Of a stretch of DNA of 64,000 nt, positions 28,816 to 54,406 are shown piece after piece; position 1 is the first letter of the stretch, and each line of letters opens with the position of its first letter. The position numbers and the translations under genes were made by a program. The notes under the pieces are model-generated. The model ran no database searches, was not told where the DNA came from, and saw only the letters and a list, made by a program, of their open reading frames with translations. Source of the DNA: Candidatus Omnitrophota bacterium (lineage in GTDB: Bacteria; Omnitrophota; Gorgyraeia; JAFGHF01); contig CP070837.1 of NCBI GenBank assembly GCA_020341815.1, positions 1,474,607 through 1,538,606 of the forward strand, written 5' to 3'.

Positions 28816-29579
28816 TGAGGATAAGTTTACCTTTATCTCAATATTTTGAACAAGTAAAAACGGATTTATGGCCATTTATAAGTGCTGTTGTTGTCCGTGA
28901 AGAAAAAAACCTGAATAGAAAGTTCAGAAATAAGGATATATTAGTTCATGCTAACGGCTTTATCAATGATGAATTTGATGAATTAATTAACAATCGTAGA
29001 TTTTTAGAAAAATTGAACTCTTGCGCAAGTCTATTATCATTTGATTTAGGACCATCGTGTCATAAAATCGATTATTCCGAACACGGATATATTGCCAAAG
29101 GCCCGGTTTTAACAGAAAGTCAAATTCTAAGAATTGCAGATAGAAAAATTAGCAATATCCGTAAGTTTTTTAAAGGCATTATATCGGTGGAGAATCTTGA
29201 TTATCATGCATTGGGCGCTTACGAAGTTGTATGCAACCCCGATTTTATAAATAAGTTTGTAGAAAAATTTAATATTTGCTTAACGTTGGATATTGGGCAT
29301 GTGGAAGTAACTTGTAGCAATTTTTCAATAGATCCGTATGATTATTTAGAAAAGTTACCATTATCCAAGGTTGTGGAGATTCATCTGGCGCGTTCTGTGG
29401 GAAGCAGAGATTCACATATGCTGCCTACAGAAAAACAGTATAGATTGTTAGAATTTATTCTGCAAAGAGTTCATGCCCGTTATATTGTCCTCGAATATTA
29501 TTTTAAACCCGAAGGGATTATCCAGGGAAATAGGGAATTAATGCAATTTCTTAAAGATAGAGGCTTATATGAAAATTGA
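28815..29579 (+). CDS. Hypothetical protein, possible xylose-isomerase-like TIM-barrel (sugar-phosphate isomerase/epimerase) fold
   Basis: EIHLARSVGSRDSHMLPTEKQYRLLEFI resembles the metal-binding HL..D...DxH.P motif of AP-endonuclease/xylose-isomerase-like TIM barrels. The evidence is weak. It is joined to the upstream gene by a TAATG junction. Confidence 0.3.
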   Translation: MRISLPLSQYFEQVKTDLWPFISAVVVREEKNLNRKFRNKDILVHANGFINDEFDELINNRRFLEKLNSCASLLSFDLGPSCHKIDYSEHGYIAKGPVLTESQILRIADRKISNIRKFFKGIISVENLDYHALGAYEVVCNPDFINKFVEKFNICLTLDIGHVEVTCSNFSIDPYDYLEKLPLSKVVEIHLARSVGSRDSHMLPTEKQYRLLEFILQRVHARYIVLEYYFKPEGIIQGNRELMQFLKDRGLYEN

Positions 29580-30633
29580 AAAGGAACAAATCTTTCTTTC
29601 AAATATTTACCAAAAATTGTTATTCCATAAAGGGCGAGGCAAAGGCCATCTTTTGAGTTATCTTAAGAATCGAATTCAATGGTATTGGTATCCTCCCCTT
29701 GGAATTGTTTCTCATTTTCCCCCTCATATTGATATAGAGATTTCGACACATTGCAATATGCATTGCCCAATGTGCCCTAGAAGGACTGAAAAGTTTAAGC
29801 AGCTCATAAAAGATCAATTTATGGAAAAGAGAATATTTGAAAAAATAATAGAAGAATGCGCTAAACACAAATTATTTTCAATCCGCTTGAGTCTAAGAGG
29901 CGAATCCTTTATGCATCCTCAAATTTTCGATTTTATTGAATTGATAAAGAAGACTGGAATAAAAGAGGTGGCCTCATTAACAAATGGTTTAGCTTTGACA
30001 CCGGGGAAATTTGAAAGGTTGGTTCAGCTTAAGTTTGACTGGTTGACTATATCCGTCGATGGTTTAGGTTCCACTTATGAATCAATAAGGAAGCCGGCTA
30101 AATTCAAGGAAGCTTTTGAAAAAATTAAAATTTATCACCAGATTAAAAAACGCTATAATTCTTCAAAACCAATGGTTAAAATTCAAGCTGTTTGGTCGGC
30201 GATTAAAGACAACCCTGAAGAATTTTATAGAACTTTTTCACCTTATGTCGATTTAATAGCTTCCAATCCGCTTATTGACTTTTCGCGTGCAAATAAACAT
30301 ATCGGGTACGACGAGAACTTTCAATGTCCATATCTATATCAGAGGATGGTTATCGCAGCCAACGGCTCGGTGCTTTTGTGTTCCTGCGATGATTACGGAG
30401 AATATATTATCGGTGACGTAAGGAATGAGTCTATCTATGAGATTTGGCATGGCCGGAAGATGAACGCAGCGCGAAAGTGGTTTAAAAAGGGAAACAGGGT
30501 CTGGCGGGAAAATGCGCCTTGCAAATATTGCTTTTATCCCAGAAAAAAAGAAAAAGCGGAAGATGCTCTGATTGAAGGGCGCAAGGTAGCGGTAGAGAGA
30601 TATGTTAACCGGCGCGAAGACGTACTTGTATGA
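29569..30633 (+). CDS. Radical SAM enzyme with SPASM-type auxiliary Fe-S domain (paralog of 49815..50822)
   Basis: The radical SAM motif is ISTHCNMHCPMCPRR (CxxxCxxC). The SPASM-type cysteines are CPYLYQRMVIAANGSVLLCSCDD...CKYCFY. It shares multiple collinear blocks with ORF 49815. Confidence 0.8.
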   Translation: MKIEKEQIFLSNIYQKLLFHKGRGKGHLLSYLKNRIQWYWYPPLGIVSHFPPHIDIEISTHCNMHCPMCPRRTEKFKQLIKDQFMEKRIFEKIIEECAKHKLFSIRLSLRGESFMHPQIFDFIELIKKTGIKEVASLTNGLALTPGKFERLVQLKFDWLTISVDGLGSTYESIRKPAKFKEAFEKIKIYHQIKKRYNSSKPMVKIQAVWSAIKDNPEEFYRTFSPYVDLIASNPLIDFSRANKHIGYDENFQCPYLYQRMVIAANGSVLLCSCDDYGEYIIGDVRNESIYEIWHGRKMNAARKWFKKGNRVWRENAPCKYCFYPRKKEKAEDALIEGRKVAVERYVNRREDVLV

Positions 30634-30667
30634 TGCAGACAAAAATAAAAAATGAAGAGGCAGGTCA

Positions 30668-31711
30668 ATGAGAGATAAAGTTAGCATTAATAACAGACAT
30701 ATAGGAAAAGGCCACCCGTGTTATATTATTTTAGAAGCAGGAGTAAACTTTGATGATATAATAGAAGCCAAGAAATTGATTGATTCCGGAGTTCGCCTGG
30801 GGGCGGACTGCATTAAGTTTCAAACATTCCATGCCCAGACGACAGTAATTGAAGGAACAAGCTTAAAAGACGGCAGAGGAATTATAGACCAGCATAAGGA
30901 GTTTACAGAAAGCCAGGAGAAGCAGACAGAGGACTTTCAAAAGAAGTTATTTGCATATGCCAAGAGCAAAGATATAACGGCCTTTTCCACCCCCAGCCAC
31001 TTTAACGATGTTGATTTGCTGGAAAGGATTGCCGATCCCCCAGCCTATAAACTTGGCTCTGACGATTTAACTAATATCCCCTTGCTAAAATACATAGCCC
31101 GGTTGAAGAAGCCAATGATAATTTCATCAGGAGTTTCTTATCTGTCAGAGATAGACACTGCCATCAGGGCGATAAGAGAAGAGGGTAATGACAATATTGT
31201 CTTATTGCACTGTATTTCACAATATCCGGCAAGACCTGAAGATATGAATTTGAGGGCGATGCAGACATTAATCAATACTTTTGATTTGCCTGTTGGTTTG
31301 AGCGACCATACAATGACAAGCTCGATTTCTCTTGCTGCCGTTGCCCTGGGCGCCTGCGTTATCGAAAGACATTTTACTTTAAATAGAGAGTCTCCGGGGC
31401 CGGATAATTTTTTCTCCATGCTGCCTGAAGAGATGGCATTGATTATTAAGGGTATCCGCGAGATTGAGACGGCCTTGGGCTCGCCCTATAAAAAGATTGC
31501 CGGGGCCGAAAAAGACATGCGTCCGGTATTCAAGAAATCAATATACGCCATACGTAATATTAGAGAAGGAGAAATGATTACAGAAAAAAATGTAGATATC
31601 TTAAGGCCGGCAGGAGGGATAGAGCCGAGATTATTGCAACATATTTACGGAATGAGAGTAAGAAGGGATATGTCGGCCGGCGAGCCGCTTACCTGGGAGT
31701 GTTTTAAGTAA
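30668..31711 (+). CDS. N-acetylneuraminate/nonulosonate synthase family (NeuB/PseI/LegI-like), copy 1
   Basis: It shows the NeuB TIM-barrel pattern (CYIILEAGVNFDD...ADCIKFQTF...LSDHT), and the C-terminal SAF domain is present (IREGEMITEKNVDILRP). Confidence 0.9.
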   Translation: MRDKVSINNRHIGKGHPCYIILEAGVNFDDIIEAKKLIDSGVRLGADCIKFQTFHAQTTVIEGTSLKDGRGIIDQHKEFTESQEKQTEDFQKKLFAYAKSKDITAFSTPSHFNDVDLLERIADPPAYKLGSDDLTNIPLLKYIARLKKPMIISSGVSYLSEIDTAIRAIREEGNDNIVLLHCISQYPARPEDMNLRAMQTLINTFDLPVGLSDHTMTSSISLAAVALGACVIERHFTLNRESPGPDNFFSMLPEEMALIIKGIREIETALGSPYKKIAGAEKDMRPVFKKSIYAIRNIREGEMITEKNVDILRPAGGIEPRLLQHIYGMRVRRDMSAGEPLTWECFK

Positions 31712-31712
31712 A

Positions 31713-33428
31713 ATGAATATACTTCTCGTAAATTTGCCATCGTTATCCTTTTCGTTATTGGACGAATCGCTAAGAAATAAAGAGGTTCTGGAAAGTCCGG
31801 TAATATTGCAAATGCCATTAAGCTTGCTTTATCTTTCCTCTTATGCGCGCAGATATGCCAAGCGGGATTTTAACTTGAAACTGCTTGATATTAATAAAGA
31901 GGTTTTTGAGATATTCAAGGAAAGAAAGATGTCGCTTGAGCCCCGGACTAATGAAGGGATACGTGAACGATTTAATTCCATCGTTTCTCAGGCAGTATCG
32001 GACTTCCGGCCGTCTATTGTGGGCATTAATATATTATATGCAACATCCCAGAATACGGGTATTTTTGTCTCTGGAGTATTCCGAAAACTATGTCCCGAGG
32101 CATATATTATAGGCGGCGGGATCCAGGCCACCAATACCTATCGGGAGATATTAAATAAAGGAAGTTTCGATGCCATCGTCCGCGGCGAAGGCGAGATACC
32201 TTTTACCGAATTGATTGATAGCTATAGACCGGAAAAGAAAGAATACCCGATTAGGGGTATCGTAAACCGGATAGACCTTAAGGGAAACAGCAATGACACA
32301 AAAGCAGAGATGGTCGAGGAGTTAGATGAAATTCCTTTTCCAGCCTGGGATTTGCTGGAAGGTCTCGATGACTATATAACTCAGCCAGTTCGCATAAAAG
32401 CCTTATTAGATAATTCTATAAGAGCAATGCCCATTCTTACGACTCGGGGATGCCCGAAGAGATGTTCTTTCTGTGCCTCGCATACGGTGCACGGCCGCAA
32501 AATCAGATCGAGGTCTTTAGAAAATATCTATGAGGAAATTGAAACTATGATTGCAAAGTTTCACATCAATACATTATTTATCGAAGACGACCTTTTTACA
32601 TATGACAGGCAAAGAACCGTAGATTTTTGCCGGGAAGCCATAAAAAGAAATTGGAACTTAAGAATTGAGTTTCCCAATGGGGTTGCGATTTGGACTTTGG
32701 ATGAAGTTTCGATCGATAGCTTAATAAAAGCAGGGACAAAGGTTATTAATATAGCAGTAGAATCCGGCAGTCCCTATGTCCAAAAGCAGATTATTAGGAA
32801 AAATCTTAACCTGGACCATGTCCGCCGAGTGGCGGAGATTATTTCCCGCTATCCCGATATTGAAAGCAGGTCTTTATATGTTATTGGCTTTCCCGGTGAG
32901 CGACAGGAGCATATCGAGCAGACAATGAAGTTTGCCAGATCAATGCCTTGCGACTGGAGTGTTTTTCACATAGCAATGCCGGTGCCCGGCAGCGATCTTT
33001 TTGAGGAATATCTGTCGTTAGGCTACATCAGTCGAGACAGCAATTTCGATGATTTCTGCAAAACATACCTAAACAGGAATTTTGACACTAAGGAATTTTC
33101 TAAGGAAGAAATGGAGGAAATACAAAGCGACTTAAACATAAAAATAAATTTTCTATCAAACAGGAATATCCTAAGGGGGAATTACAAAAAGGCCCTTTCT
33201 CTCTTTCAAAAGATTATCGAGGATTATCCCTTTCATGTCATAGCAAGATATTGCCTATGGAACTGTTTGAGAGCCTTAAAGATGCATAAAGAGGCACAAG
33301 AAGAATTAAACTCCATTTTTTACTGGATTAAAAACGATGAAAAATCTCAAAGGCTTTACGATAAATACAAGTCACTTTTAGAAATACCGGAAGATCTCCT
33401 CAATGCTAAAGATGGATCTAATCTATGA
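31713..33428 (+). CDS. B12-binding (class B) radical SAM enzyme
   Basis: The N-terminal cobalamin-binding module includes VSGVFRKLCPEAYIIGGGIQAT. The radical SAM motif is TRGCPKRCSFCASH. Confidence 0.8.
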   Translation: MNILLVNLPSLSFSLLDESLRNKEVLESPVILQMPLSLLYLSSYARRYAKRDFNLKLLDINKEVFEIFKERKMSLEPRTNEGIRERFNSIVSQAVSDFRPSIVGINILYATSQNTGIFVSGVFRKLCPEAYIIGGGIQATNTYREILNKGSFDAIVRGEGEIPFTELIDSYRPEKKEYPIRGIVNRIDLKGNSNDTKAEMVEELDEIPFPAWDLLEGLDDYITQPVRIKALLDNSIRAMPILTTRGCPKRCSFCASHTVHGRKIRSRSLENIYEEIETMIAKFHINTLFIEDDLFTYDRQRTVDFCREAIKRNWNLRIEFPNGVAIWTLDEVSIDSLIKAGTKVINIAVESGSPYVQKQIIRKNLNLDHVRRVAEIISRYPDIESRSLYVIGFPGERQEHIEQTMKFARSMPCDWSVFHIAMPVPGSDLFEEYLSLGYISRDSNFDDFCKTYLNRNFDTKEFSKEEMEEIQSDLNIKINFLSNRNILRGNYKKALSLFQKIIEDYPFHVIARYCLWNCLRALKMHKEAQEELNSIFYWIKNDEKSQRLYDKYKSLLEIPEDLLNAKDGSNL

Positions 33429-37164: not shown

Positions 37165-38163
37165 ATGGATTTAAAAGGAAAGAAAATACTCATCACAGGT
37201 TCGGAGGGATTTATAGGAAGCCATCTTGTTGAGAGGCTCTTGCAGGAGGATTGCGAAATCAGAGCTTTTGTTTATTACAATTTCTCCAATTCCTGGGGCT
37301 GGCTCGATAGTTTGCATAGGGATGAATTAAACAAAATAGAAATTTTTACAGGAGATATAAGAGACGTCAATAGGGTCAAGGCAGCGGTAAAGGCAACAGA
37401 TGCCGTATTTCATTTGGCAGCATTAATAGGCATTCCCTACAGTTACGATTCTCCGGATCATTATGTAGAGACGAATATAAAAGGCACGCTTAATATTTTA
37501 CAGGCATCAATGGATTCAAGGGTGGAGAAGATTTTGGTTACTTCTACATCCGAAGTTTATGGAACCGCTAAATATGTTCCTATAGATGAAAAACATCCGA
37601 AGCAAGGACAATCGCCTTATTCGGCAACGAAGATAGGGGCAGATTTCATAGCAGAATCGTTTTACAGAAGTTTTGATTTGCCTGTGGTAATAGCAAGACC
37701 TTTTAACACTTACGGACCCCGTCAATCCGCCCGGGCAGTAATACCGGCGATAATAACTCAGCTTTTATCGGGGAAAAAAGAGATAAAGCTTGGAGCTTTG
37801 CATCCGAAGAGGGATTTGGTCTATGTAAAGGATGCGGTTGAGGCATTTATGCAGATAGCCAAATCAGACAAAATCATCGGAGAAGAGATAAATATTGCCT
37901 CGCAGACAGAGATATCCATCGGTGAGCTTGCTCAGAAGCTGATAAGCATGATTAACCCCGAAGCCAGAGTAGTAAAGGACCAGATGAGGCTAAGGCCCCG
38001 GCAGAGCGAAGTCGAAAGACTGCTGGGAAGCAACGAAAAAATAATGAGACTGACAAATTGGAAGCCAAAGTATAGCTTAGATGAAGGGTTGAAAGAAACT
38101 ATCGAATGGTTTAAAAATAAGGAAAATCTCAAATTATATAAGTCGAATATTTACAATGTGTAA
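37165..38163 (+). CDS. NAD-dependent nucleotide-sugar 4,6-dehydratase/epimerase (extended SDR; LegB/PglF-type role inferred)
   Basis: The Rossmann start is ILITGSEGFIGSHLVERLL and the catalytic motif is YSATKIGADF (YxxxK). It is the first gene of a canonical Leg-like operon. Confidence 0.8.
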   Translation: MDLKGKKILITGSEGFIGSHLVERLLQEDCEIRAFVYYNFSNSWGWLDSLHRDELNKIEIFTGDIRDVNRVKAAVKATDAVFHLAALIGIPYSYDSPDHYVETNIKGTLNILQASMDSRVEKILVTSTSEVYGTAKYVPIDEKHPKQGQSPYSATKIGADFIAESFYRSFDLPVVIARPFNTYGPRQSARAVIPAIITQLLSGKKEIKLGALHPKRDLVYVKDAVEAFMQIAKSDKIIGEEINIASQTEISIGELAQKLISMINPEARVVKDQMRLRPRQSEVERLLGSNEKIMRLTNWKPKYSLDEGLKETIEWFKNKENLKLYKSNIYNV

Positions 38164-39253
38164 GCAAATTTACTTAGACGCTCCAAATGTCGGAGAATTA
38201 GAAAAGAAATACCTAATTAAAGCAGTGGACAGTGATTATGTTTCGACTATAGGGCCTTATGTGCCGGAATTCGAAGATATATTTGCCTGCTATTTAGGTA
38301 TAAACAGGGCTGTATCGATTCAAAGTGGAACCGGAGCTATCCATATTGCCCTGCATGAACTTAAGGTAAGCAGGGGTGATGAAGTGATTGTTCCTTGTCT
38401 GACATTTGTCGCATCGGTAAATCCTGTTATATATGTAGGAGCAAAACCTGTTTTTGTGGATGTGGATGATAGAACATGGAATATCGATCCCAAAGAGATT
38501 GAAAAAAGCATAACTAAAAGAACTAAAGCGATAATACCCGTTCATTTTTATGGAAACCCCTGCAATATGGATGAGATAATGCGTATTGCAAAAAAATATA
38601 ATCTTTACGTTATAGAAGATGCCGCAGAGAGCTTAGGGGCCAGGTATAGAGACAGATACACCGGGACATTTGGAGATTTGGGGTGTTTCAGTTTTAACGG
38701 AAATAAAATCATTACTACAGGCGGGGGAGGAATGGTTGTAGGAAACAATGCAGACAGGTTAAAACATATAAAATTTCTTGTAAATCAGGGACAAGATAAG
38801 ACAAAAGGATATTATTATCCGGAGATCGGATTTAACTATAGAATGACAAACATAGAAGCAGCATTGGGTCTTGCTCAGATGGAGAAATTAGACAATTTTT
38901 TAACAAAGAAGAAGACATTTAATAAAATATACAGGGAAGAGCTCGGAGATATCGATATTATCCGATTTCAGGAAGAATATCAAAACGCAAAGAGTTCCTG
39001 GTGGTTAACATCCATTATTTTCGACAAAGATATAGACATTTCCGCATTACAAAAAAGATTAAAAGAAAAAGGCATTCCTGCAAGAAGGGTTTTTATGCCG
39101 GTTACAGAATCTGCGCCTTATAGGCAATATAAACAGGCAGACTTTGGAAATTCTTATCAAATTTATGAAAAAGGTTTATGTTTGCCAAGCTCCACATTAA
39201 ATTCTGAAGATAATATATATTATGTCTGTAGGATAATAAAAGAGTCAATTTAG
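38156..39253 (+). CDS. DegT/DnrJ-family PLP-dependent nucleotide-sugar aminotransferase (LegC/PglE/PseC-like)
   Basis: It has the typical N-terminus (IYLDAPNVGELEKKYLIKAVDSDYVSTIGPYVPEFE), then SGTGAIHIALH...FSFNGNKIITTGGGGMVV. It overlaps the upstream gene with an ATGTGTAA junction. Confidence 0.85.
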   Translation: MCKQIYLDAPNVGELEKKYLIKAVDSDYVSTIGPYVPEFEDIFACYLGINRAVSIQSGTGAIHIALHELKVSRGDEVIVPCLTFVASVNPVIYVGAKPVFVDVDDRTWNIDPKEIEKSITKRTKAIIPVHFYGNPCNMDEIMRIAKKYNLYVIEDAAESLGARYRDRYTGTFGDLGCFSFNGNKIITTGGGGMVVGNNADRLKHIKFLVNQGQDKTKGYYYPEIGFNYRMTNIEAALGLAQMEKLDNFLTKKKTFNKIYREELGDIDIIRFQEEYQNAKSSWWLTSIIFDKDIDISALQKRLKEKGIPARRVFMPVTESAPYRQYKQADFGNSYQIYEKGLCLPSSTLNSEDNIYYVCRIIKESI

Positions 39254-39265
39254 GATAAATTAGAA

Positions 39266-39925
39266 ATGAAAGAAGAGATTATTTTAATAGGCGGTGGCGG
39301 ACATTGTAAGGCGTGCATCGATGTAATAGAAGCCGAAAAAAGATTTAAAATAGCAGGAATAGTTGACTCGAAGAAAAAGGTTAATCAAAAAGTCCTCGGT
39401 TATAAGATAATCGCCTCTGATGAGGAAGTGGTGAAACTTGCTAAAGAATATAGACACTTTTTGATAACAATTGGACAAATAAAAAGTGTGGGTAAAAGAA
39501 TAGAAAAATTTGAACACTTAAAAAAAATTGGAGTGAATTTTCCAATAGTTGTTTCTCCATTTGCTTATGTTTCGAAATATTCAAGGATTGAGGAAGGAAC
39601 AATTATAATGCATAAAGCGTTTGTAAATTCCGATGCAAAAATCGGAAAGAATTGCATTATAAATACAGGAGCTATTATCGAACACGAAGCAAGCATAGGA
39701 GACCATTGCCACATTTCTACAAATAGCGTCATAAATGGGCAGTGTAGTATAGGAAGCAAGACATTTATAGGAAGCAATTGTGTCATAGTAAATAACATAA
39801 ACATTCCAGAGAATACAGTAATTGGAGCTGGTTCTGCCATTAAAAAATCCATTGGTAAAAGCGGAATCTATGTAGGAAACCTTTCAGGGAAATTTTCACG
39901 AGAATGCGTAAGACCTTTGTCATAG
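39266..39925 (+). CDS. Hexapeptide-repeat (LbH) sugar N-acetyltransferase, NeuD/PglD/LegH family
   Basis: The N-terminal Rossmann-like IILIGGGGHCKACIDVIEA is characteristic of PglD/NeuD. The C-terminal half has left-handed beta-helix hexapeptide repeats (IGKNCIINTGAIIEHEASIGDHCHISTNSVING). Confidence 0.85.
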   Translation: MKEEIILIGGGGHCKACIDVIEAEKRFKIAGIVDSKKKVNQKVLGYKIIASDEEVVKLAKEYRHFLITIGQIKSVGKRIEKFEHLKKIGVNFPIVVSPFAYVSKYSRIEEGTIIMHKAFVNSDAKIGKNCIINTGAIIEHEASIGDHCHISTNSVINGQCSIGSKTFIGSNCVIVNNINIPENTVIGAGSAIKKSIGKSGIYVGNLSGKFSRECVRPLS

Positions 39926-40908
39926 CAGAAGCCGGTGTCAATCATAACGGAAGCATTAAGATAGCGAAAAAAATGATTGACGCAGCTGTATTAGCCGGCG
40001 CGGACGCCGTTAAGTTCCAGACTTTTGAAGCAGAAAAGCTGGTTACTAAATCTGCTCCTATGGCCGAATATCAAAAGAAGGCAACGGGTGAAAGTGAGTC
40101 ACAGTTTGAGATGATAAAGAGATTGGAATTGGATAAAAAAGCGCATCAAGAACTTATGAAGCACTGCAAAAAAAGAGGTATATTATTTTTATCAAGCCCC
40201 TTTGATTTAGAAAGCATAGAATTCCTTAATCGGCTTGGATTGGAAGTATTTAAGGTTGCTTCGGGAGAGATAACAAATGTTCCATTCTTGAGAAAGATAG
40301 GGACTTTAAGAAAGAAAATTATAATCTCCACAGGGATGGCGGATTTAAAAGAAATAGAGAATGCCTTATGTGTTTTAATAAAGGCAGGAACGCCGAAAGA
40401 GAACATAACGCTATTACATTGCAATACAGAATATCCCACACCTTTTGAAGATGTAAATCTATCAGCTATGCTGACAATAAGAGATGCCTTTAAAGTTAGA
40501 GTCGGCTATTCCGACCACACTCCGGGAATAGAAATTCCAATTGCAGCGGCAGTTTTAGGGGCAAGTGTTATAGAAAAGCATTTTACGCTGGACAAAAATA
40601 TGCAAGGCCCCGACCATAGAGCATCTTTGGAGCCCGATGACTTAGGGGCAATGGTAAAAGCGATAAGACATATAGAAAAGGCCCTGGGCAGTAGAATTAA
40701 GAAGCCTTCGCCATCGGAAATTAAAAATAGAAGATTGGTGCGCAAAAGTATTGTAGCGTCAAGATTTATTAAAAAAGGCGAGCTCCTTACGCAGGAGAAT
40801 ATTACAACAAAAAGACCGGCAACAGGCATAAGCCCGATGAGCTGGGATAAAGTAATTGCTCAAAAGGCAAAGAGAAATTTTAAGAAAGACGAGTCATTGG
40901 AATTATAA
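39904..40908 (+). CDS. Nonulosonate synthase NeuB/LegI family, copy 2 (canonical)
   Basis: It shows MRKTFVIAEAGVNHNGSIKIAKKMIDAAVLAGADAVKFQTF and YSDHTPGIEIPIAAAVLGASVIEKHFTLD, and the SAF domain is present (IKKGELLTQENITTKRP). Confidence 0.9.
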   Translation: MRKTFVIAEAGVNHNGSIKIAKKMIDAAVLAGADAVKFQTFEAEKLVTKSAPMAEYQKKATGESESQFEMIKRLELDKKAHQELMKHCKKRGILFLSSPFDLESIEFLNRLGLEVFKVASGEITNVPFLRKIGTLRKKIIISTGMADLKEIENALCVLIKAGTPKENITLLHCNTEYPTPFEDVNLSAMLTIRDAFKVRVGYSDHTPGIEIPIAAAVLGASVIEKHFTLDKNMQGPDHRASLEPDDLGAMVKAIRHIEKALGSRIKKPSPSEIKNRRLVRKSIVASRFIKKGELLTQENITTKRPATGISPMSWDKVIAQKAKRNFKKDESLEL

Positions 40909-40939
40909 GATGGATTAGTGGGCTAAATAAGGAGATGTA

Positions 40940-42103
40940 ATGAAAAGAAAAATTTGCATTTTTACAGGCACAAGAGCTGAATATGGACTTTTAAAACCAC
41001 TGATGAAAAGGATAAAAGGGGATAAGACCTTAGAGCTTCAGATAATTGCTTCCGGAATGCATTTATCGCCGGAATTCGGCCTTACATACAGGGAAATAGA
41101 AAAAGACGGATTCATAATAGATGAAAAAATAGAGATTCTATTAAGCTCTGATACCCCGGTAGGCTTAAGTAAGTCAGCGGGTTTGGCAATGATAAGCTTC
41201 AGTGAAGCTTACAGGAGACTAAAACCCGATATTGTTGTGATTCTTGGCGATAGATTTGAGACATTTGCGGCGGCAGTGTCGGCTATGATGTCAAGAATCC
41301 CCATAGCCCATTTGCATGGAGGAGAGGCTACCTTTGGAGCGATTGATGAGGCTATCAGGCATTCTATAACCAAAATGAGCCATTTGCATTTTACTTCTAC
41401 AGAAATTTACAGGAAAAGGGTTATACAATTAGGAGAGAATCCCGGCGCAGTCTTTAATGTTGGGGCAATAGGTTTAGACAATATTAAGGGGTTAAACCTT
41501 TTATCAAAGAAGATACTGGAGAAAAAGTTAGATTTTAAATTCAACAAATATAATTTCTTAGTAACCTTTCATCCGGTTACATTGGAAAATAACACCTCAA
41601 AAAGGCAATTCCAGAACCTGCTTGATGCCTTAGATGAGCTGAAAGAGACCAACCTCATCTTTACAAAAGCAAATGCTGATCCGGAAGGCAGGCTAATCAA
41701 TAAAATGATCAATGACTATGTATCAAAAAATTCTGATAGGTCTGTGTCATTTACTTCAATGGGACAGTTAAACTATTTATCAACCATGCAGTTTGTGGAT
41801 GGCATTATCGGAAATTCATCAAGCGGAATCGTTGAGGCCCCTAGCTTTGAAATCGGAACAATAAATATTGGCGATAGGCAGAAAGGGAGAATTAAGGCAG
41901 AAAGTATAATAGATTGTCAGCCTGCAAAACGGAACATCGAAGACGCTATCAAAATATTATATTCCGAGAAGTTTCAAAAAAATCTCAAAAAAGTTATTAA
42001 CCCATATGGCGATTGTGAAGCCTCAAAGAGAATCAAAGCCATATTGAAGAAGCATGGAATAAAGGATGTGTTAAAGAAATCCTTCTTTGATATAAATTTT
42101 TAG
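40940..42103 (+). CDS. UDP-N-acetylglucosamine 2-epimerase (hydrolysing), NeuC/LegG family
   Basis: It shows KICIFTGTRAEYGLLKPLMKRI and HLHGGE, and the 387-aa length is typical of NeuC. A GGAG Shine-Dalgarno sequence lies upstream. Confidence 0.9.
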   Translation: MKRKICIFTGTRAEYGLLKPLMKRIKGDKTLELQIIASGMHLSPEFGLTYREIEKDGFIIDEKIEILLSSDTPVGLSKSAGLAMISFSEAYRRLKPDIVVILGDRFETFAAAVSAMMSRIPIAHLHGGEATFGAIDEAIRHSITKMSHLHFTSTEIYRKRVIQLGENPGAVFNVGAIGLDNIKGLNLLSKKILEKKLDFKFNKYNFLVTFHPVTLENNTSKRQFQNLLDALDELKETNLIFTKANADPEGRLINKMINDYVSKNSDRSVSFTSMGQLNYLSTMQFVDGIIGNSSSGIVEAPSFEIGTINIGDRQKGRIKAESIIDCQPAKRNIEDAIKILYSEKFQKNLKKVINPYGDCEASKRIKAILKKHGIKDVLKKSFFDINF

Positions 42104-42115
42104 TTAACAGAGAAA

Positions 42116-43201
42116 ATGGAAAGATGGCATAACATGGGAAACAAAAATAAAATTGATGAAATAAAAATCCCTGCAGAGTTATCCATAAAAGAGTGCTTGA
42201 AAAAGATTGACCAGGGAGCAAGGAAAATATTATATATCTGCGATAAAAACGGATGTTTACTGGGGTCGCTTACCGATGGTGACATAAGAAGAAGGCTTCT
42301 GGAGACAGGAAACCTGCAGGAAGAAATCGTTCATTGCTTTAATCGAAACCCCATTTTTGTGACGGAGAATAATTACACCATAGAGGAGATAAAGAAACTG
42401 ATGCTGGGGCATATGATAGAGGGGTTGCCGATTCTGGATGAGAATAAGAAAATTATAGATATCTTATTCTGGGTGGATGTATTTGGAGAGGGGAGCAAAA
42501 CTTATAGAAAGATAAATATACCTGTAGTTATCATGGCCGGCGGCAAGGGAGAGAGATTGGGGCCTTTCACAAAAATACTGCCCAAATGTCTTATACCCGT
42601 GGGGGAAAGGCCCATTATAGAGATGATAATGGATAGATTTAGCCAGCATGGAGTAAGGCATTTTTATGTTAGCTTGAATTATAAAGGAGAAATGGTACAG
42701 ACATATTTTGGAGGCACGGAAAAAAAATACACGATAGATTATATTTGGGAGAAAGAATTTTTTGGGACGGCAGGAAGCCTTAAGTTATTACCCCCTGATA
42801 TAAGCGAGAATTTTATCGTTTCTAACTGCGACATTATTGTAGATGTCGATTATGCAGATTTGTTAAGATTTCATCGGAGAAATAAAAATATATTGACGGT
42901 AGTCGGCTCTATACAGCATTATAAAGTTCCTTACGGGATTATCCATTTTAAAAAAGAAGGAAAATTACAGGAAATCCAGGAGAAGCCGGAATTCGATTTT
43001 ACTGTGAATACGGGAGTATATGTATTATCCAGACAAGCATTGGCATATATCCCTGAGGATAGGCATTTTGATATGACGGATTTTATCCAAACCCTTTTAA
43101 ATAGCAAGGAAAATGTGGGAGTTTACCCGGTAAGCCAAAAATCCTATATTGATATTGGACGCTGGGAAGAGTATAAAGAATATACCCAGAAATTGATATA
43201 A
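42116..43201 (+). CDS. CBS-domain pair + sugar-1-phosphate nucleotidyltransferase (PtmE-like hexosamine-1-P guanylyl/nucleotidyltransferase)
   Basis: The N-terminus has two CBS motifs (about residues 20–140). These are followed by VVIMAGGKGERLGPFTKILPKCLIPVGERPIIE, the G-x-G-x-R-L nucleotidyltransferase signature. Confidence 0.85.
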   Translation: MERWHNMGNKNKIDEIKIPAELSIKECLKKIDQGARKILYICDKNGCLLGSLTDGDIRRRLLETGNLQEEIVHCFNRNPIFVTENNYTIEEIKKLMLGHMIEGLPILDENKKIIDILFWVDVFGEGSKTYRKINIPVVIMAGGKGERLGPFTKILPKCLIPVGERPIIEMIMDRFSQHGVRHFYVSLNYKGEMVQTYFGGTEKKYTIDYIWEKEFFGTAGSLKLLPPDISENFIVSNCDIIVDVDYADLLRFHRRNKNILTVVGSIQHYKVPYGIIHFKKEGKLQEIQEKPEFDFTVNTGVYVLSRQALAYIPEDRHFDMTDFIQTLLNSKENVGVYPVSQKSYIDIGRWEEYKEYTQKLI

Positions 43202-43219: not shown

Positions 43220-44242
43220 ATGCTGGATACAACAAAACCTTATATTATAGGCGAAACCGCATATATTCATGAAGGAGATTTTTGTTTTCTTTCGCGAATA
43301 GTGGATGAAATTGCCGAAGTGGGGCTTAATGCCGCAAAGTTCCATTTGTTGTTAAACCCTGAGAGTTACATGAGCAGGAAGCATCCGCTTATGGAAAATA
43401 TAAAGAAGTGGGTTTTTTCCAGGAAACAATGGAGCGATATCTTTAATCGTTCAAAAGAGAAGGGATTGGATATTATAGCCTTGTGCGACGATGTGGAAAG
43501 CATCGAGTATATTATTGCCGAAAGAGACGATGTTTTTGCGATAGAAATTCACGCTACAGGATTAAATGATTATTTTTTGCTTGATGCTGCATCGAAATTC
43601 GATGGTTTTATATTATTGGGAATTAGCGGTTCGACAATTGAGGAAATTCAATATGTTGTGGATTTTCTAAAAGAAAGAAACGTAAAGAAAATTGTTTTAA
43701 TGTATGGTTTTCAAAGTTATCCGACTGATCACAAAGATATCAATTTATCGAAAATGCTAAAGCTGAAAGACATCTTTAAGTTGCCGATAGGCTATGCAGA
43801 CCATACCGCCTTTGGCAGCCCCTATAATGAAATTATAAGCGTTATGCCGGCTGCAATGGGATTTCATATTTTAGAGAAGCATTATACGCCTATTCATGGC
43901 GAAAAAAGGATAGATTATGAAGCAGCGGTTGGCAAAGAAAGTATGAAGAAAATAATAGAGCTAATGCGGATTAATCTAGAGGCTTACGGCACAAAAAAAT
44001 TAGATATGCCCAATACAGAATTGCAATATGGAACAACCGGCCCTATGAAAAAAGCAATTGTGGCCAGAAAGGATATTCAAGAAGGCGAAAAGCTTTCCTT
44101 GGACAATCTCTGGTTCAAGAGAACGAAAGAAAGGAGTTCTGTAAAACAAAATCAATTTCCGAAATTAATCGGATTAAAGGCAAAAAAAGACCTAGAAAAG
44201 GATGAAATAATAGATCTTGATAAAATTGAGCACAAATTGTAG
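43220..44242 (+). CDS. NeuB-family nonulosonate synthase, divergent copy 3
   Basis: It shows IIGETAYIHEGDF...LNAAKFH...IGYADHT...ILEKHYT, and the C-terminal SAF-like segment is IVARKDIQEGEKL. It is more divergent than copies 1 and 2. Confidence 0.7.
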   Translation: MLDTTKPYIIGETAYIHEGDFCFLSRIVDEIAEVGLNAAKFHLLLNPESYMSRKHPLMENIKKWVFSRKQWSDIFNRSKEKGLDIIALCDDVESIEYIIAERDDVFAIEIHATGLNDYFLLDAASKFDGFILLGISGSTIEEIQYVVDFLKERNVKKIVLMYGFQSYPTDHKDINLSKMLKLKDIFKLPIGYADHTAFGSPYNEIISVMPAAMGFHILEKHYTPIHGEKRIDYEAAVGKESMKKIIELMRINLEAYGTKKLDMPNTELQYGTTGPMKKAIVARKDIQEGEKLSLDNLWFKRTKERSSVKQNQFPKLIGLKAKKDLEKDEIIDLDKIEHKL

Positions 44243-44268
44243 AGGAATTTATTGGATACGCAAATTTT

Positions 44269-45510
44269 TTGAAGAAAGGGATAGCAATGGATACTATGTG
44301 GAAGAAGTGGAACGAAGTCAAACTAATTTGCCAAAATAAGAGGATCGTCTTATTTGGCCGTTCTGAGGACTGGGTTCATAAGACTTTACCCAAACTGTCT
44401 CGCCCACCCGATTATATTATAGACAGCAATCCCGGATACACCGGAACGACTTTTCATAATCTTAATATATATCCGCCGGATAAACTGAAAACCGAAAATA
44501 TAGATGAAATCTATATCATTATTACAGCCGGTCCTTACGAGAGTGTTGTTTCGCAATTGGAAGAGTATAATCTGCAGGCAGGAAAGCATTTTTGTTGCAC
44601 ACCGGCATACTATGATTTTAAATTGCTTCAGGAAATTCATCGGTATGACCGGAGGATTCTTATATCTTCTCCCGATTATAGCGAAAAGAAAAACCATCGC
44701 TACAGTAAGTCCGGGGGAGGATTATATATTTGTGACCTTATTTCAAATCAGATAGAGAAAAAAATTCCAGGGCATTTTAGACAGGTTATGCAAGTTGATG
44801 GCTATATATATGCTTTAGAATATGTGGAAATGAAATTGTATGTGCTATCAATGGACATAAACATAGTGGAAAAGCTTCCCCTTGATAAGCCTAATGTTTG
44901 CGGCTTAGCGTATTGTCCAGAGCGAAAACTCATATTTATATCAAATACCGGCACCGATACGATATCTATTTATAATAAAGAGAAATTTCGACTGGTTGAT
45001 ACGATTGAATTCTCAGACAAATATAGAAAAAGAAAGATAGGGCGCCACCACATCAATGATATTTGCGTTGTAGAGGATTCGCTATATGTAAGCTACTTTT
45101 CTCTTTCGGGAAATTGGAAGCGAGGTATTCTTGATGGAGGGATTGTCGAGTTCCATATCGATCAAATAGGCAAACCAGCTAATGTGTTGGTAAAAAATCT
45201 ATGGATGCCCCATAGCGTCGAATTCTTTGACGGAAAATTGACTTATTTGGATTCCAGGAGAGGCCGTTTCTATATAGGCAATCAGAATATTGCCGGAGAG
45301 TTTCCCGGATTTATGCGAGGGCTGGATTACGATGGACGATTTTACTATATAGGACAAAGCGAAGATATGTATATGAGCGACCTTTTCGGAATTTCGAATA
45401 ACATAATGTTAAATGCAGGTTTTTTTCTATTTGATGTCGATACTAAAGTGAGCAAATTTTACAGTTTTAAGGATTTAATTAATGTCCACGATATTTTAGT
45501 ATTACCGTGA
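44269..45510 (+). CDS. Hypothetical protein (413 aa), N-terminal Rossmann-like segment then repeat-rich (beta-propeller-like?) region
   Basis: RIVLFGRSEDW...DYIIDSNPGY resembles a PglD-N-terminal-type nucleotide-binding module. The remainder has repetitive beta-strand-like segments. I recognise no family. Confidence 0.3.
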   Translation: MKKGIAMDTMWKKWNEVKLICQNKRIVLFGRSEDWVHKTLPKLSRPPDYIIDSNPGYTGTTFHNLNIYPPDKLKTENIDEIYIIITAGPYESVVSQLEEYNLQAGKHFCCTPAYYDFKLLQEIHRYDRRILISSPDYSEKKNHRYSKSGGGLYICDLISNQIEKKIPGHFRQVMQVDGYIYALEYVEMKLYVLSMDINIVEKLPLDKPNVCGLAYCPERKLIFISNTGTDTISIYNKEKFRLVDTIEFSDKYRKRKIGRHHINDICVVEDSLYVSYFSLSGNWKRGILDGGIVEFHIDQIGKPANVLVKNLWMPHSVEFFDGKLTYLDSRRGRFYIGNQNIAGEFPGFMRGLDYDGRFYYIGQSEDMYMSDLFGISNNIMLNAGFFLFDVDTKVSKFYSFKDLINVHDILVLP

Positions 45511-45523
45511 AAAAAGTTAAGGA

Positions 45524-46327
45524 TTGGCAATAATGAAAATAGGATTTTTAATTACCGCAAGACTGAAATCGACAAGGCTGCCCTTTAAAATACTTAAGGA
45601 TTTGAACGGTAAAACCGTTGTTGAAAGGGTTATAGACAGGGCCAAGCAAATCAGGGATATTTCAAAAATTGTTCTTTGCACATCCTTCAATCCCCAGGAT
45701 AAGCCCCTTATTGACCTGGCGAAGAAAAACAGCGTTGAGATTTTTGCCGGGGAAGAAAACGATGTTTTAAAAAGATTCTTGGGGGCCACAAATGTTTTCG
45801 GCCTGAAATATTTCTTGAGCATCACCGCTGACAATCCTTTATTCTCGATAAAATACTCAAACCTTATGGTCGAAAGATTAAAAAAGTATAAACACGATTT
45901 TATAAAGATAGAAGGCCTTCCCCTGGGCACAAGGCCATACGGCTTGAAAACGAAGGCGCTGGAAAGAGTTTGTAACGTAAAGGATATCAAGGATACAGAG
46001 ATCTGGGGATATTTTTTTGACAGACCGGAGATTTTTAATGTGGGGTGCATTAAGGTTAAGGGGAGGCTGAAACGGCCCGATTTAAGGCTAACCCTGGATT
46101 ATGGTGAGGATTATGAGCTCATCAATAACGTTTACTCAAATATCACTTTTCGGAACACCCTTGAGCTTGATAAAGCCATTGCTTATCTGGATGCAAACTC
46201 CGAAATTGCAAAATTGAATCAGGGATGCATCCAGAGAGACCTTGACCGTGGCATCAAGGATCATATCGATAGTATTTTTGGCGGCAGGACAAAGACAAAA
46301 TTTTTTATAGAGAAGGATAAAAAATAG
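45524..46327 (+). CDS. Cytidylyltransferase, CTP_transf_3 family (SpsF/acylneuraminate cytidylyltransferase-like)
   Basis: MKIGFLITARLKSTRLPFKILKDLNGKTVVERVIDRA is the hallmark SpsF/NeuA-family N-terminus. The protein is 267 aa. Confidence 0.8.
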   Translation: MAIMKIGFLITARLKSTRLPFKILKDLNGKTVVERVIDRAKQIRDISKIVLCTSFNPQDKPLIDLAKKNSVEIFAGEENDVLKRFLGATNVFGLKYFLSITADNPLFSIKYSNLMVERLKKYKHDFIKIEGLPLGTRPYGLKTKALERVCNVKDIKDTEIWGYFFDRPEIFNVGCIKVKGRLKRPDLRLTLDYGEDYELINNVYSNITFRNTLELDKAIAYLDANSEIAKLNQGCIQRDLDRGIKDHIDSIFGGRTKTKFFIEKDKK

Positions 46328-47227: not shown

Positions 47228-47258
47228 TTTCATTATGTTAGAAAAGGTCAATTTCATT
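47211..47258 (+). repeat. 24-bp imperfect tandem duplication (2 copies, 22/24 identical) spanning the sulfotransferase stop and ABC-transporter start
   Basis: The two copies are atgttacaaaaggttaatttcatt and atgttagaaaaggtcaatttcatt. They produce the peptide MLQKVNFI-MLEKVNFI if translated from the first ATG. Confidence 0.8.
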
Positions 47259-49046: not shown

Positions 49047-49070
49047 ACTTATTGAAAGGATAATAAAAAT

Positions 49071-49814
49071 ATGATTATTGCGCTTTTAATAGGCAGAAAG
49101 GCAAGCCGGGGTCTTCCCGGGAAGAATTTGCATATTGTCTTAGGTAACCCACTTGCATATTATCCTATTAAGGCGGCGAAGGATTGTGCCGAAATAGACA
49201 GGATATATATGTCAACGGATGACGAAAAGCTCATAGACTTGGCAAAGATAAACGGCATTGCCTCTATTCAGAGACCGCCTGAGTTATGTACAGACGATGC
49301 CCTTGGGGAAGATGCCTACATTCACGCTTATAATGTTGTGAAGGAAAAAAACGAAGGCCAGATAGAGATGCTTGTTCTTTTGATGTGCAATGCCGCTACA
49401 ATTACATCAGAGATGATTTCATCGGGGATAAAGGTTTTAAGGGAAAATCCCGATTATGATTCTGCGGTGACAGTGTCAGGGTGCAATATGTGGAGCCCCT
49501 TAAGAGCAAGAAAAATCGGCGAAGATGGTCTCTTGAGGCCTTTTGTTCCATTTGAGACATTTGGCGACCCAAAAATATTAAATTGTGATAGAGATTCGCA
49601 GGGGGATGTATGGTTTGCCGATATGGGTGTTTCGATCGTTCGTCCAAGATGTTTAGAAAATATAGAAAAGGGATTGCTGCCCCAGAAATGGATGGGGCGA
49701 AAGATTTATCCGCTTAAGCAATGGGGCGGCTGCGATATAGATTATGAATGGCAGATTCCTATGACAGAATATTGGTTAAGGAAACATGGCTTTACAGAAG
49801 CTGCAAATGGATAA
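49071..49814 (+). CDS. Acylneuraminate (CMP-nonulosonate) cytidylyltransferase, NeuA family, third cytidylyltransferase in the locus
   Basis: MIIALLIGRKASRGLPGKNLHIVLGNPLAYYPIKAA is the canonical NeuA N-terminus. The protein is 247 aa. Confidence 0.85.
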   Translation: MIIALLIGRKASRGLPGKNLHIVLGNPLAYYPIKAAKDCAEIDRIYMSTDDEKLIDLAKINGIASIQRPPELCTDDALGEDAYIHAYNVVKEKNEGQIEMLVLLMCNAATITSEMISSGIKVLRENPDYDSAVTVSGCNMWSPLRARKIGEDGLLRPFVPFETFGDPKILNCDRDSQGDVWFADMGVSIVRPRCLENIEKGLLPQKWMGRKIYPLKQWGGCDIDYEWQIPMTEYWLRKHGFTEAANG

Positions 49815-50822
49815 TTGATTATGCCCCGGATACAACCAAACGCTAACTTTCATACTGTTACTGAAAAGACAGTGCTCGATGACCGTAAAGATAAGGAGTT
49901 TTTAGAGTATCGGCGGCGCTGGTATGAATTCCCGATTAATTTTATCGTGGGTGGATTTCCTATACATTTAGATATAGAGACTACAAATATATGCAATCTT
50001 CACTGCCCATTTTGCGCAACAACCTTTAAAAATTGGGGACCCTATAAAAAAGGGCTTTTGGATTTATCTCTTTTTAAAAGAATCATTGACGAAGGGGCTG
50101 ACAATGGACTTTGTTCTGTAAAACTTAGCCTGCGCGGCGAACCATTGTTACACCCCGATATTGCCGAGATGGTAGCTTATGCCAAGAAAAGAGGTATTAT
50201 AGATATCTATTTTAATACCAATGGCACTTTTCTTGATGAAAACAAAATAAATCAGTTAATAGATTCGGGCCTGGACAGGATATCAATCTCCTTCGAGGGA
50301 ATTAGTAAAGAAGTTTACCAGAGGTATCGCCCGGGCGCTGAGTATGAATCTGTAGTTGATAATATAAAGAAATTGCGGCAGATTCGGGATAAGAGAAATT
50401 TGCCCCATCCTAAGATTAGAATCCAGACAGTGTTACTCCCGGAATTAAGGGAAGCATTTACTGAATATGTGGGATTTTGGGAGAAGATTGCCGATGAGGT
50501 ATCATATTTAGATGCAAGGAAAGAAACACCGAAAGATAAGCATAAAGGAGGGATAGCTGATTGGGCTTGTCCGTTTCTTTGGCAAAGAATGGTCATACTT
50601 TGGGATGGGACAATTTTGCCTTGCCTTATGCATGGTGTTGATAACTTTAGCCTGATGAGTTTGGGCAATGTGAAAGAACTCAGCATCAAAGAGATGTGGC
50701 AAGGTAAAGAAGTTTTCCGTTATAGAGAAATTCACCGCTTAGGTCAATCGCATAAGCTTGAGGCTTGTGAGCGTTGTTCCTACCGGGCTATGGAATTGGA
50801 GAAACTCGAGATAAAGAAATGA
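49815..50822 (+). CDS. Radical SAM enzyme with SPASM-type auxiliary domain (paralog of 29569..30633)
   Basis: The radical SAM motif is IETTNICNLHCPFCATT. The SPASM-type cysteines are CPFLWQRMVILWDGTILPCLMHG...CERCSY. The start immediately abuts the NeuA stop (TAATTGATTATG region). Confidence 0.8.
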   Translation: MIMPRIQPNANFHTVTEKTVLDDRKDKEFLEYRRRWYEFPINFIVGGFPIHLDIETTNICNLHCPFCATTFKNWGPYKKGLLDLSLFKRIIDEGADNGLCSVKLSLRGEPLLHPDIAEMVAYAKKRGIIDIYFNTNGTFLDENKINQLIDSGLDRISISFEGISKEVYQRYRPGAEYESVVDNIKKLRQIRDKRNLPHPKIRIQTVLLPELREAFTEYVGFWEKIADEVSYLDARKETPKDKHKGGIADWACPFLWQRMVILWDGTILPCLMHGVDNFSLMSLGNVKELSIKEMWQGKEVFRYREIHRLGQSHKLEACERCSYRAMELEKLEIKK

Positions 50823-54405: not shown

Positions 54406-54406
54406 G

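Follow-up and report, generated by a model that had tools for sequence, protein, structure and literature searches.

Two widespread families of twitch-type radical SAM enzymes in nonulosonic acid cassettes point to an undescribed radical step in nonulosonic acid synthesis

Introduction

Nonulosonic acids (NulOs), which comprise the sialic, legionaminic and pseudaminic acids and their relatives, are carried on flagella, S-layers, capsules and lipopolysaccharides, and shape host, phage and immune interactions. To our knowledge, the described routes to NulOs use NAD- and pyridoxal phosphate-dependent enzymes together with hydrolyzing epimerases, none of which is a radical enzyme. Here, we analyze a 64,000-nucleotide stretch of a Candidatus Omnitrophota metagenome-assembled genome (GenBank assembly GCA_020341815.1, contig CP070837.1, positions 1,474,607 to 1,538,606 of the forward strand; hereafter the window), in which two genes for radical S-adenosylmethionine (SAM) enzymes, A (29569..30633) and B (49815..50822), each lie directly beside genes of NulO-synthesis families. 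The closest relative of known structure is BtrN, which oxidizes an aminocyclitol alcohol by two electrons and carries a twitch domain, i.e., a truncated SPASM domain with a single auxiliary cluster, which in BtrN is ligated by four cysteines (PMC9012708).

In the literature we searched, no radical SAM step in NulO biosynthesis is described and the two subjects meet only in incidental co-mentions, in keeping with the novelty that an initial sequence-only reading of this DNA had claimed for such a step. The surface-glycan region of Campylobacter fetus subsp. testudinum contains two phase-variable genes of the 'radical SAM MoaA/NifB/PqqE/SkfB family' (PMC6321876). We find that the feature is not peculiar to the window, as A and B belong to two very widespread, uncharacterized families, and that a known kind of enzyme is here placed in a pathway for which no radical chemistry is on record, a placement that points to an as yet undescribed radical step in NulO synthesis.

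Results

Domain architecture and closest relatives of A and B

Both genes lie on the + strand, as open reading frames (ORFs) bearing the motifs quoted in the sequence-only reading. A encodes a protein of 354 amino acids that matches the Pfam models for the radical SAM core (PF04055, 58.7 bits) and the SPASM domain (PF13186, 45.3 bits), and B, of 335 amino acids when read from a TTG codon, scores 93 and 51.6 bits on the same models; all four scores exceed the gathering thresholds (29.5 and 21.5, respectively). Their proposed paralogy is evident from BLASTP, which aligns the two at 31% identity over 298 amino acids (E 5e-48), far above chance, and we regard them as members of two old orthologous families, not as recent duplicates. 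They share a pattern of three plus four cysteines, with a CX3CX2C motif at C62/C66/C69 and auxiliary cysteines C253, C271, C318 and C321 in A, and the corresponding residues C60/C64/C67 and C252, C270, C318 and C321 in B.

Three deposited proteins (P0001, P0121 and P0392) are 100% identical to the window. Because the deposited model of B (P0121) has 333 amino acids, translation probably starts at ATG 49821 (333 amino acids) instead of at the TTG codon. The deposited model of A (P0001, 287 amino acids, 'SPASM domain-containing protein') begins at Met68 and loses C62 and C66 of the CX3CX2C motif, while the full 354-residue ORF is supported by homologs that match 99% of its length.

Across 88 aligned sequences, seven cysteines alone are invariant: those of the CX3CX2C triad plus C253, C271, C318 and C321 (A numbering). 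The last four fit the spacing CX12GX4C (C253-X12-G266-X4-C271) ... CX2C (C318-X2-C321). The full seven-cysteine SPASM pattern with two auxiliary clusters (CX9-15GX4C ... CX2CX5CX3C ... C) is not present, as no cysteine follows at +5 or +3. Aligning the C-terminal stretch separately pairs C253, C271, C318 and C321 with C169, C187, C232 and C235 of BtrN. Because only four cysteines are conserved and these align with the auxiliary-cluster cysteines of BtrN, the C-terminal domain of both enzymes is, as read from the sequences, a four-cysteine twitch domain and not a full SPASM domain. The label 'SPASM' of the sequence-only reading holds at the level of the Pfam match and fails at that of the seven-cysteine domain, and the comparison with BtrN that it had proposed is what places the auxiliary domain in the twitch class.

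BtrN is also the top match by profile among all PDB sequences (E 4e-18), and the top Foldseek match for the AlphaFold (AF2) models of both A (E 4.9e-13; predicted local distance difference test score, pLDDT, 94.7) and B (E 3.8e-14; pLDDT 96.0), with SpeY, DesII, BlsE and AprD4 among the structural matches at scores below that of BtrN. We reject orthology to BtrN as a DOIA dehydrogenase, given an identity of 18-19% and the NulO gene context. A and B also fall under every curated NCBIfam cutoff, including those of the twitch, anSME, PqqE, tungsten-maturase and spiro-SPASM models. On NF033640 (twitch domain-containing radical SAM protein), A reaches 69.9 and B 61.3 bits where 170 are required; anSME (TIGR03942) gives 29.9 bits for A against 349, and only four auxiliary cysteines are present; and spiro-SPASM (TIGR04321) gives 71.9 and 72.6 bits, and 63 bits for the fusion protein P0291 (see below), against 250. 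The top NCBIfam match, TIGR04317 (tungsten cofactor oxidoreductase maturase), reaches 110 and 129 bits against 380 and covers the radical SAM core only (model positions 6-168).

Linkage to nonulosonic acid genes

In the window, the first 11 bp of A are shared with the upstream gene (28815-29579), and 34 bp separate the end of A from NeuB copy 1 (30668..31711, +), the immediate adjacency that had been noticed from the sequence. NeuB copy 1 is a divergent NulO synthase: its place in the NeuB family is secure (PF03102, 255.6 bits), and it scores under both equivalog cutoffs, that of NeuB (TIGR03569, 310 bits; cutoff 399.65) and that of PseI (296 bits; cutoff 340.25). B begins at the base after the stop codon of a divergent CTP_transf_3 cytidylyltransferase gene (49071..49814, +; PF02348, 47 bits); on its other side, an SDR gene follows after a gap of 8 bp. 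The upstream gene had been named 'NeuA copy 3'; the adjacency is exact, but the name does not apply to this divergent protein, which reaches 60.8 bits on the PseF model against a cutoff of 205.7. There is no space for a peptide gene on either side of A or of B.

To place these neighborhoods in a wider frame, we labeled the ORFs of related loci by BLASTP against the window's annotated proteins and a few Pfam-verified seeds, and calculated partner percentages for loci with at least 6 kb of flank (A-type, n = 74; B orthologs, n = 9; B-like genes at 30-40% identity, n = 15; distant radical SAM/SPASM controls, n = 17). NeuB is present in 90% of A-type, 66% of B and 80% of B-like loci and in 0 control loci, and CTP_transf_3 in 86%, 77% and 80%, respectively, and in 1 control locus. 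Several partners are concentrated around A: the PseG-like hydrolase (A-type 79%, B 11%, B-like 6%), WbqC (78%, 0% and 6%), the PIG-L deacetylase (77%, 22% and 0%) and the sugar-1-phosphate nucleotidyltransferase (52%, 0% and 20%). Extended SDR proteins (79%, 77% and 40%) and DegT aminotransferases (48%, 44% and 26%) accompany all three groups, and each of these six partners is found in 0 control loci. Epimerase_2 is present in 5% of A-type, 22% of B and 33% of B-like loci and in 1 control locus. In the metagenome set (at least 4 kb of flank), NeuB and/or CTP_transf_3 occur in 23 of 28 related loci vs. 1 of 20 control loci (Fisher p = 1.2e-7). Of 67 A-type loci, 54 have a synthase of the NeuB-copy-1 type as the one nearest to A. 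The co-occurrence with NeuB- and NeuA-type genes, which the sequence-only reading had proposed as a test, is thus borne out, and the evidence that the A and B families belong to NulO cassettes is strong, with a linkage that is both conserved and specific across distant taxa.

The order of the A cassette is well illustrated in Rhizobiaceae, where it runs LegB-like dehydratase, nucleotidyltransferase, SDR, A, NeuB, CTP_transf_3, PseG-like hydrolase, WbqC and PIG-L; a hexapeptide acyltransferase lies between A and NeuB in Neorhizobium, and the Rhizobium locus, which carries BLAST labels only, shows no gene there. The LegB-type 4,6-dehydratase of this cassette scores 489 bits on TIGR04180, above the cutoff of 475, and the nucleotidyltransferase is PtmE-like. 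Directly after A, we find DegT in 7 loci and an SDR or hexapeptide acyltransferase in others. B orthologs usually adjoin a cytidylyltransferase, with an SDR or class I/II aminotransferase (Aminotran_1_2), methyltransferases, a 2-hydroxyacid dehydrogenase, a HAD hydrolase and an SDR epimerase following. The B module of the window has this same arrangement, with Pfam-labeled partners at 50831..55967 (+) that comprise an SDR (50831-51583), two methyltransferases, a 2-hydroxyacid dehydrogenase (53467-54405), a HAD hydrolase and an SDR epimerase; the partner set is repeated in three further loci (L163, L165 and L084), and a cytidylyltransferase of the 49071-49814 type adjoins B orthologs in five (L083, L084, L092, L096 and L163).

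We also observed a second conserved context of A-like enzymes, in which CTP_transf_3, NeuB, DUF4910, an A-like radical SAM gene and a B12 radical SAM gene follow one another in this order, and which recurs in about 12 other loci (L055, L057, L061, L062, L065, L072 and L075 among the DUF4910 loci).

Gene fusions

Among the best 150 representatives, we searched for proteins in which A or B is joined to another domain. On the A side, the fusions are NeuB+SAF+A, SDR+A and methyltransferase+A; on the side of B and its relatives, they are 2-hydroxyacid dehydrogenase+B in two independent forms (P0246 and P0284), CTP_transf_3+B-like (P0291/P0391) and FkbM methyltransferase+B-like. The two-domain fusion proteins are P0243, P0247, P0244, P0246, P0284, P0291/P0391 and P0283, and three of the fusions recur, each on two or three contigs of independent origin. 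The domains joined to A and B in these proteins reappear as the neighbors of A and B in the window, and the fusions with NeuB, CTP_transf_3, SDR and 2-hydroxyacid dehydrogenase provide independent support for the NulO link. Together with the gene linkage, they favor a sugar or other small-molecule substrate over a peptide, as had been suggested from the sequence.

The question of a peptide substrate

The sequence-only reading had found no precursor peptide nearby and had considered a role in the production of peptides that are ribosomally made and modified after translation (RiPPs) unlikely, a view that our wider sampling upholds. Across 124 loci with a relative of A or B, we found no conserved small ORF; the median gap to same-strand flanking genes is 1 bp upstream and 6 bp downstream, and the small ORFs that lie outside long ORFs form only two-member clusters, from near-identical genomes. 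Neither A nor B has a match to a RiPP recognition element (RRE) or to PqqD, with Pfam giving only Radical_SAM, SPASM and Fer4_12, and the N-terminal ~50 residues of both are modeled as two helices with no winged-helix sheet. Curated maturase models (PqqE, MftC, sactipeptide, ranthipeptide and others) all score far under their cutoffs, such as 73 bits for B on PqqE against 381.

One neighbor calls for separate comment. The gene directly upstream of A in the window (28815..29579, +) encodes a DUF692/MNIO-like TIM-barrel protein (PF05114, 57.2 bits). Its subfamily comprises 19 clusters and is found only within the NulO cassette, beside an A-type enzyme and NeuB, in loci such as L003, L012, L167 (10001-10759) and L168 (10001-10789), with no peptide gene. 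Because the subfamily is confined to sugar cassettes, we judge a RiPP reading prompted by this neighbor to be unlikely; the protein may instead be an MNIO relative that acts on a sugar. The two DUF692 variants with Pfam-annotated neighbors (L167 and L168) are without a PseG-like gene, as is the window.

Distribution of the two families

Homologs of A (about 352 residues, 47-73% identity) and of B (about 334 residues, 60-80% identity) each number in the hundreds, and come from Omnitrophota, Patescibacteria, Chloroflexota, Nitrospirota, anammox bacteria and others. A profile search over 1.84 billion representatives returned 4,405 representative clusters (50% identity) at E <= 1e-30, which cover both families plus relatives. 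Scanning one genome per species yielded 80 A-type loci. In bacteria, these are spread over Elusimicrobiota, Nitrospinota, Planctomycetota, Gemmatimonadota, Chlorobiota, Fibrobacterota, Bacteroidota, Firmicutes, Campylobacterota, several proteobacterial classes and others, and in archaea over Nitrosopumilaceae and Thermoplasmata. Among the carriers in culture are Azospirillum formosense, Ferrovibrio xuzhouensis, Neorhizobium sp. and Sporofaciens musculi; in Rhizobium sp. WYJ-E13 (NZ_CP076854.1, around 1,674,394-1,675,434) and Neorhizobium galegae (NZ_HG938356.1) the A-type gene lies on chromids, and plasmid records also carry the A-type cassette. The metagenome scan for B returned only about 10 true B orthologs, the remainder being a gradient of relatives, which we used as an internal control.

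A strong local expansion of these enzymes was observed in an anammox bacterium, where a contig from a Candidatus Anammoxibacter metagenome-assembled genome (L017, JAIQZQ010000069.1) encodes 1 A-type copy and 3 copies that best match B, along with NeuB, WbqC, PIG-L and CTP_transf_3.

Other genes of the window

The whole 64 kb forms a single + strand surface-glycan locus. Pfam and NCBIfam scans identify three NeuB-family synthases (30668-31711, 39904-40908 and 43220-44242) and three CTP_transf_3 cytidylyltransferases (17510-18154, 45524-46327 and 49071-49814), along with glycosyltransferases, methyltransferases, a sulfotransferase and an ABC exporter. Partners that recur in A-type loci elsewhere are also present, namely a PIG-L-type deacetylase (16795-17508, by Pfam), CTP_transf_3 copy 1 directly after it (17510-18154, by Pfam) and a WbqC-family protein (26594..27292; PF08889, 249.7 bits). 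Searches of the window by blastp and tblastn found no PseG-like, class III aminotransferase, GFO or formyltransferase partner.

Two further sets of NulO genes lie between A and B. A conventional legionaminic-acid-like module (37165..43201) consists of a 4,6-dehydratase, a DegT aminotransferase, a PglD-like acetyltransferase, NeuB copy 2, Epimerase_2 and a CBS nucleotidyltransferase, and its synthase, at 515.7 bits on TIGR03569, exceeds the cutoff. It is followed at 43220..46327 by NeuB copy 3, a DUF4915 protein and CTP_transf_3 copy 2 (Pfam and NCBIfam). NeuB copy 3 (43220-45510 region, with the DUF4915 protein after it) is very divergent, with 99.8 bits on PF03102 and 142 bits on TIGR03569 against the cutoff of 399.65, and this divergence together with the DUF4915 neighbor suggests that it may condense a different substrate.

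Radical SAM genes number nine in the window, six of the B12-binding type and three with a C-terminal SPASM-model match; the sequence-only reading had passed over the third of the latter and all six of the former. The third SPASM/twitch-type gene (7062..8156, +), flanked by genes for an RmlD-like reductase and a flavin amine oxidase, shares only about 28% identity with A and B in the core region. The cysteines of its product (C273, C292/C293, C328 and C331) are likewise twitch-like in appearance, and its best NCBIfam matches are AhbD/NirJ-type models, far under their cutoffs. The six genes of the B12-binding type, all on the + strand, lie at 3437-4894, 14134-15855, 20528-22360, 27286-28815, 31713-33428 and 60739-62976. 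The one at 27286..28815 (PF04055, 57.2 bits, with a weak PF02310 match) sits between the WbqC and DUF692 genes, in a slot that is also filled at L167; the one at 31713..33428, which Pfam shows to have a TPR tail, lies downstream of NeuB copy 1; and the last is fused to a GT2 glycosyltransferase. These six proteins share only 20-29% identity among themselves, which suggests that several distinct radical methylations or rearrangements of the glycan may take place.

Other neighbors hint at additional decoration. A DUF4910/DUF2172/M28-like protein (18200-20299, +) adjoins an aminoglycoside-3-N-acetyltransferase-like protein; an asparagine-synthase-like glutamine amidotransferase, followed by a transglutaminase-core protein (10584-13166, +), may equip a sugar acid with an amide or amidino group; and the position of a sulfotransferase gene (46328-47227, +) between a cytidylyltransferase and the ABC exporter hints at a sulfated surface sugar. 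Finally, two large proteins without a Pfam match (33425-35278 and 55960-57966, +) bear a weak likeness to Leptospira O-antigen families, namely to the LIC12162 family transferase TIGR04331 (36 bits) and to the LIC13510-type TIGR04326 (189 bits; cutoff 250), and proteins of about 600 amino acids with an LIC12162-family Pfam match recur in L167 and L168.

Discussion

We propose, with a confidence that is evenly poised, that A and B, as twitch-type radical SAM enzymes like BtrN, modify a carbohydrate of NulO pathways by radical oxidation to a ketone, and are not peptide maturases. Within this proposal, we infer the class of substrate, a sugar or NulO, strongly, the type of chemistry moderately, and the exact substrate weakly. 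In the mechanism we envisage, the CX3CX2C cluster would cleave SAM to a 5'-deoxyadenosyl radical, which would take a hydrogen atom from the carbinol carbon of a nucleoside diphosphate-linked 6-deoxyhexosamine or of a NulO intermediate, free or linked to cytidine monophosphate (CMP); the substrate radical would then become a ketone, with one auxiliary [4Fe-4S] cluster, whose ligands are four cysteines (in A, C253, C271, C318 and C321), as the exit route for the electron. The ketone would be used by a neighboring enzyme, giving a net amination with an aminotransferase, as when BtrS follows BtrN, or a net epimerization with an SDR. In the A module, this step would be set among a LegB-like dehydratase, a sugar-1-phosphate nucleotidyltransferase, an SDR, a divergent NeuB, CTP_transf_3, a PseG-like hydrolase, WbqC and PIG-L, and in the B module among a cytidylyltransferase, an SDR or aminotransferase, methyltransferases, a 2-hydroxyacid dehydrogenase and a HAD hydrolase. 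The oxidation reading fits the genes that follow, with DegT, SDR or acyltransferase after A and an aminotransferase or SDR after B, and fits the lack of any extra invariant cysteine that could serve as a hydrogen donor. Because A cassettes are nearly without a NeuC/LegG-type 2-epimerase and have a PseG-like hydrolase in place, we suggest that A may supply a stereochemical or redox step that the cassette would otherwise lack. A broader and distinctly tentative extension of this idea, which we regard as possible though doubtful, is that the A-type cassette constitutes a widespread, undescribed NulO pathway of bacteria and archaea, in which a radical SAM enzyme replaces the redox or stereochemical step of NeuC/LegG and the product is an uncatalogued NulO isomer or derivative, with B providing a second radical tailoring step at the level of the CMP-sugar or a side chain.

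Other radical reactions on a small molecule would account for some of the same observations. A direct radical epimerase, which would take a hydrogen from a sugar carbon and return one to the opposite face as NeoN, HygY and AviX12 do, could in the A cassette replace the 2-epimerization of NeuC/LegG or yield a new stereoisomer of NulO. Sugar epimerases of the twitch type exist among radical SAM enzymes, an epimerization step does seem to be missing from cassettes that have the PseG-like hydrolase in 79% of cases and Epimerase_2 in only 5%, and the synthase beside A belongs to a divergent NeuB clade under both equivalog cutoffs. We nevertheless consider this unlikely, as no invariant cysteine beyond the seven cluster ligands is available as a hydrogen-atom donor, only one conserved tyrosine (Y170, at least 90%) could substitute for it, and a fully cysteine-ligated auxiliary cluster is the arrangement of BtrN, which is tied to a net two-electron oxidation. 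Dehydration of a 1,2-diol (AprD4-like), deamination (DesII-like), decarboxylation (BlsE-like) or, especially for B, modification of an N-acyl or glycerate-derived side chain of a CMP-linked NulO is improbable to a similar degree. DesII, BlsE and SpeY do appear among the structural matches, A-like enzymes also lie beside DUF4910 (M28-like) proteins and B12 radical SAM genes, and the company of B, which is fused to or clustered with a phosphoglycerate-dehydrogenase-like 2-hydroxyacid dehydrogenase and clustered with a HAD hydrolase, methyltransferases and a cytidylyltransferase, suggests an acid side chain or a CMP handle; by sequence profile, however, the closest relative is BtrN and not DesII, BlsE or AprD4.

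That A and B instead act on a peptide of ribosomal origin, or on a surface protein such as a glycosylation target, with the sugar genes as mere neighbors, is in our view very improbable. Such a role would be in keeping with the Pfam SPASM match, as many SPASM proteins are RiPP maturases, with the MNIO/DUF692-like gene upstream of A, and with an ABC exporter two genes upstream of B, the cytidylyltransferase gene lying between; against it stand the lack of a conserved small ORF in 124 loci with gaps of about 1-6 bp, the absence of an RRE, the conservation of only four auxiliary cysteines, the low scores on NCBIfam peptide-maturase models, the fusions to NeuB, SDR, CTP_transf_3 and 2-Hacid_dh, and the confinement of the DUF692 subfamily to sugar cassettes. 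Our preferred reading of A and B as sugar-oxidizing twitch enzymes has points to answer as well. Identity to BtrN is only 18-19%, and the activities of the members of both families are predicted ones. The window's own A module is without the PseG-like gene that 79% of A-type loci possess, and neighbors vary among cassette variants, so that A may act at different steps in different places. The fusions seen once (P0243, P0247, P0244 and P0246) could be artefacts of assembly or gene calling. A gene of a family best known for RiPP chemistry does lie directly upstream of A in the window, and a twitch domain is compatible with peptide substrates, as SkfB is a twitch-type RiPP maturase.

Two radical SAM families are thus fixed components of NulO cassettes in many phyla, including ammonia-oxidizing archaea, Nitrospirota, anammox bacteria, Omnitrophota and cultured Rhizobiaceae, the last of which make the question of their enzymology testable in cultivable hosts. 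Their presence predicts NulO structures that are not yet known, and offers a caution for the mining of genomes for RiPPs, as many genes labeled 'SPASM' would be sugar enzymes and not peptide maturases.

Comparison with described systems sets out what is shared and what is new. Spiro-SPASM (TIGR04321), a family for which we found no literature, is a model of 510 positions in which CTP_transf_3 copy 2 matches 17-207 and A and B match 226-502, so that its pairing of domains mirrors genes 49071-49814 and 49815-50822, which adjoin each other in the window but are not joined into one. SpeY, HygY, NeoN, AviX12, DesII, BlsE and AprD4 resemble A and B as radical SAM enzymes that act on carbohydrates or aminocyclitols without a peptide substrate, but they serve antibiotic pathways of Actinobacteria or Firmicutes and not cell-surface NulOs. 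Epimerases of the NeoN and HygY type use an extra cysteine as hydrogen-atom donor, and in this respect A and B differ, having no conserved extra cysteine in the 88 sequences.

BtrN, the 2-deoxy-scyllo-inosamine dehydrogenase of butirosin synthesis (PDB 4M7T/4M7S), is alike in its radical SAM core and twitch domain, in four cysteines (C-X17/18-C ... C-X2-C) that align with the invariant four of A and B, and in an amino-sugar-like small-molecule substrate on which an aminotransferase acts afterwards. It differs in context, which is 2-deoxystreptamine and not NulO biosynthesis, and in architecture, as A and B have a conserved N-terminal extension of about 50 residues and A has a C-terminal beta-hairpin as well. 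With the canonical NulO pathways (NeuCBA for Neu5Ac; LegB/C/H/G/I/F for legionaminic acid; PseB/C/H/G/I/F for pseudaminic acid), the A cassette has in common a LegB-type dehydratase, a PtmE-like nucleotidyltransferase, a NeuB-family synthase, CTP_transf_3 and a PseG-like hydrolase. It departs from them in a synthase that scores under both the NeuB and the PseI equivalog cutoffs, in having no NeuC/LegG 2-epimerase, and in the addition of WbqC, a PIG-L deacetylase and a radical SAM enzyme.

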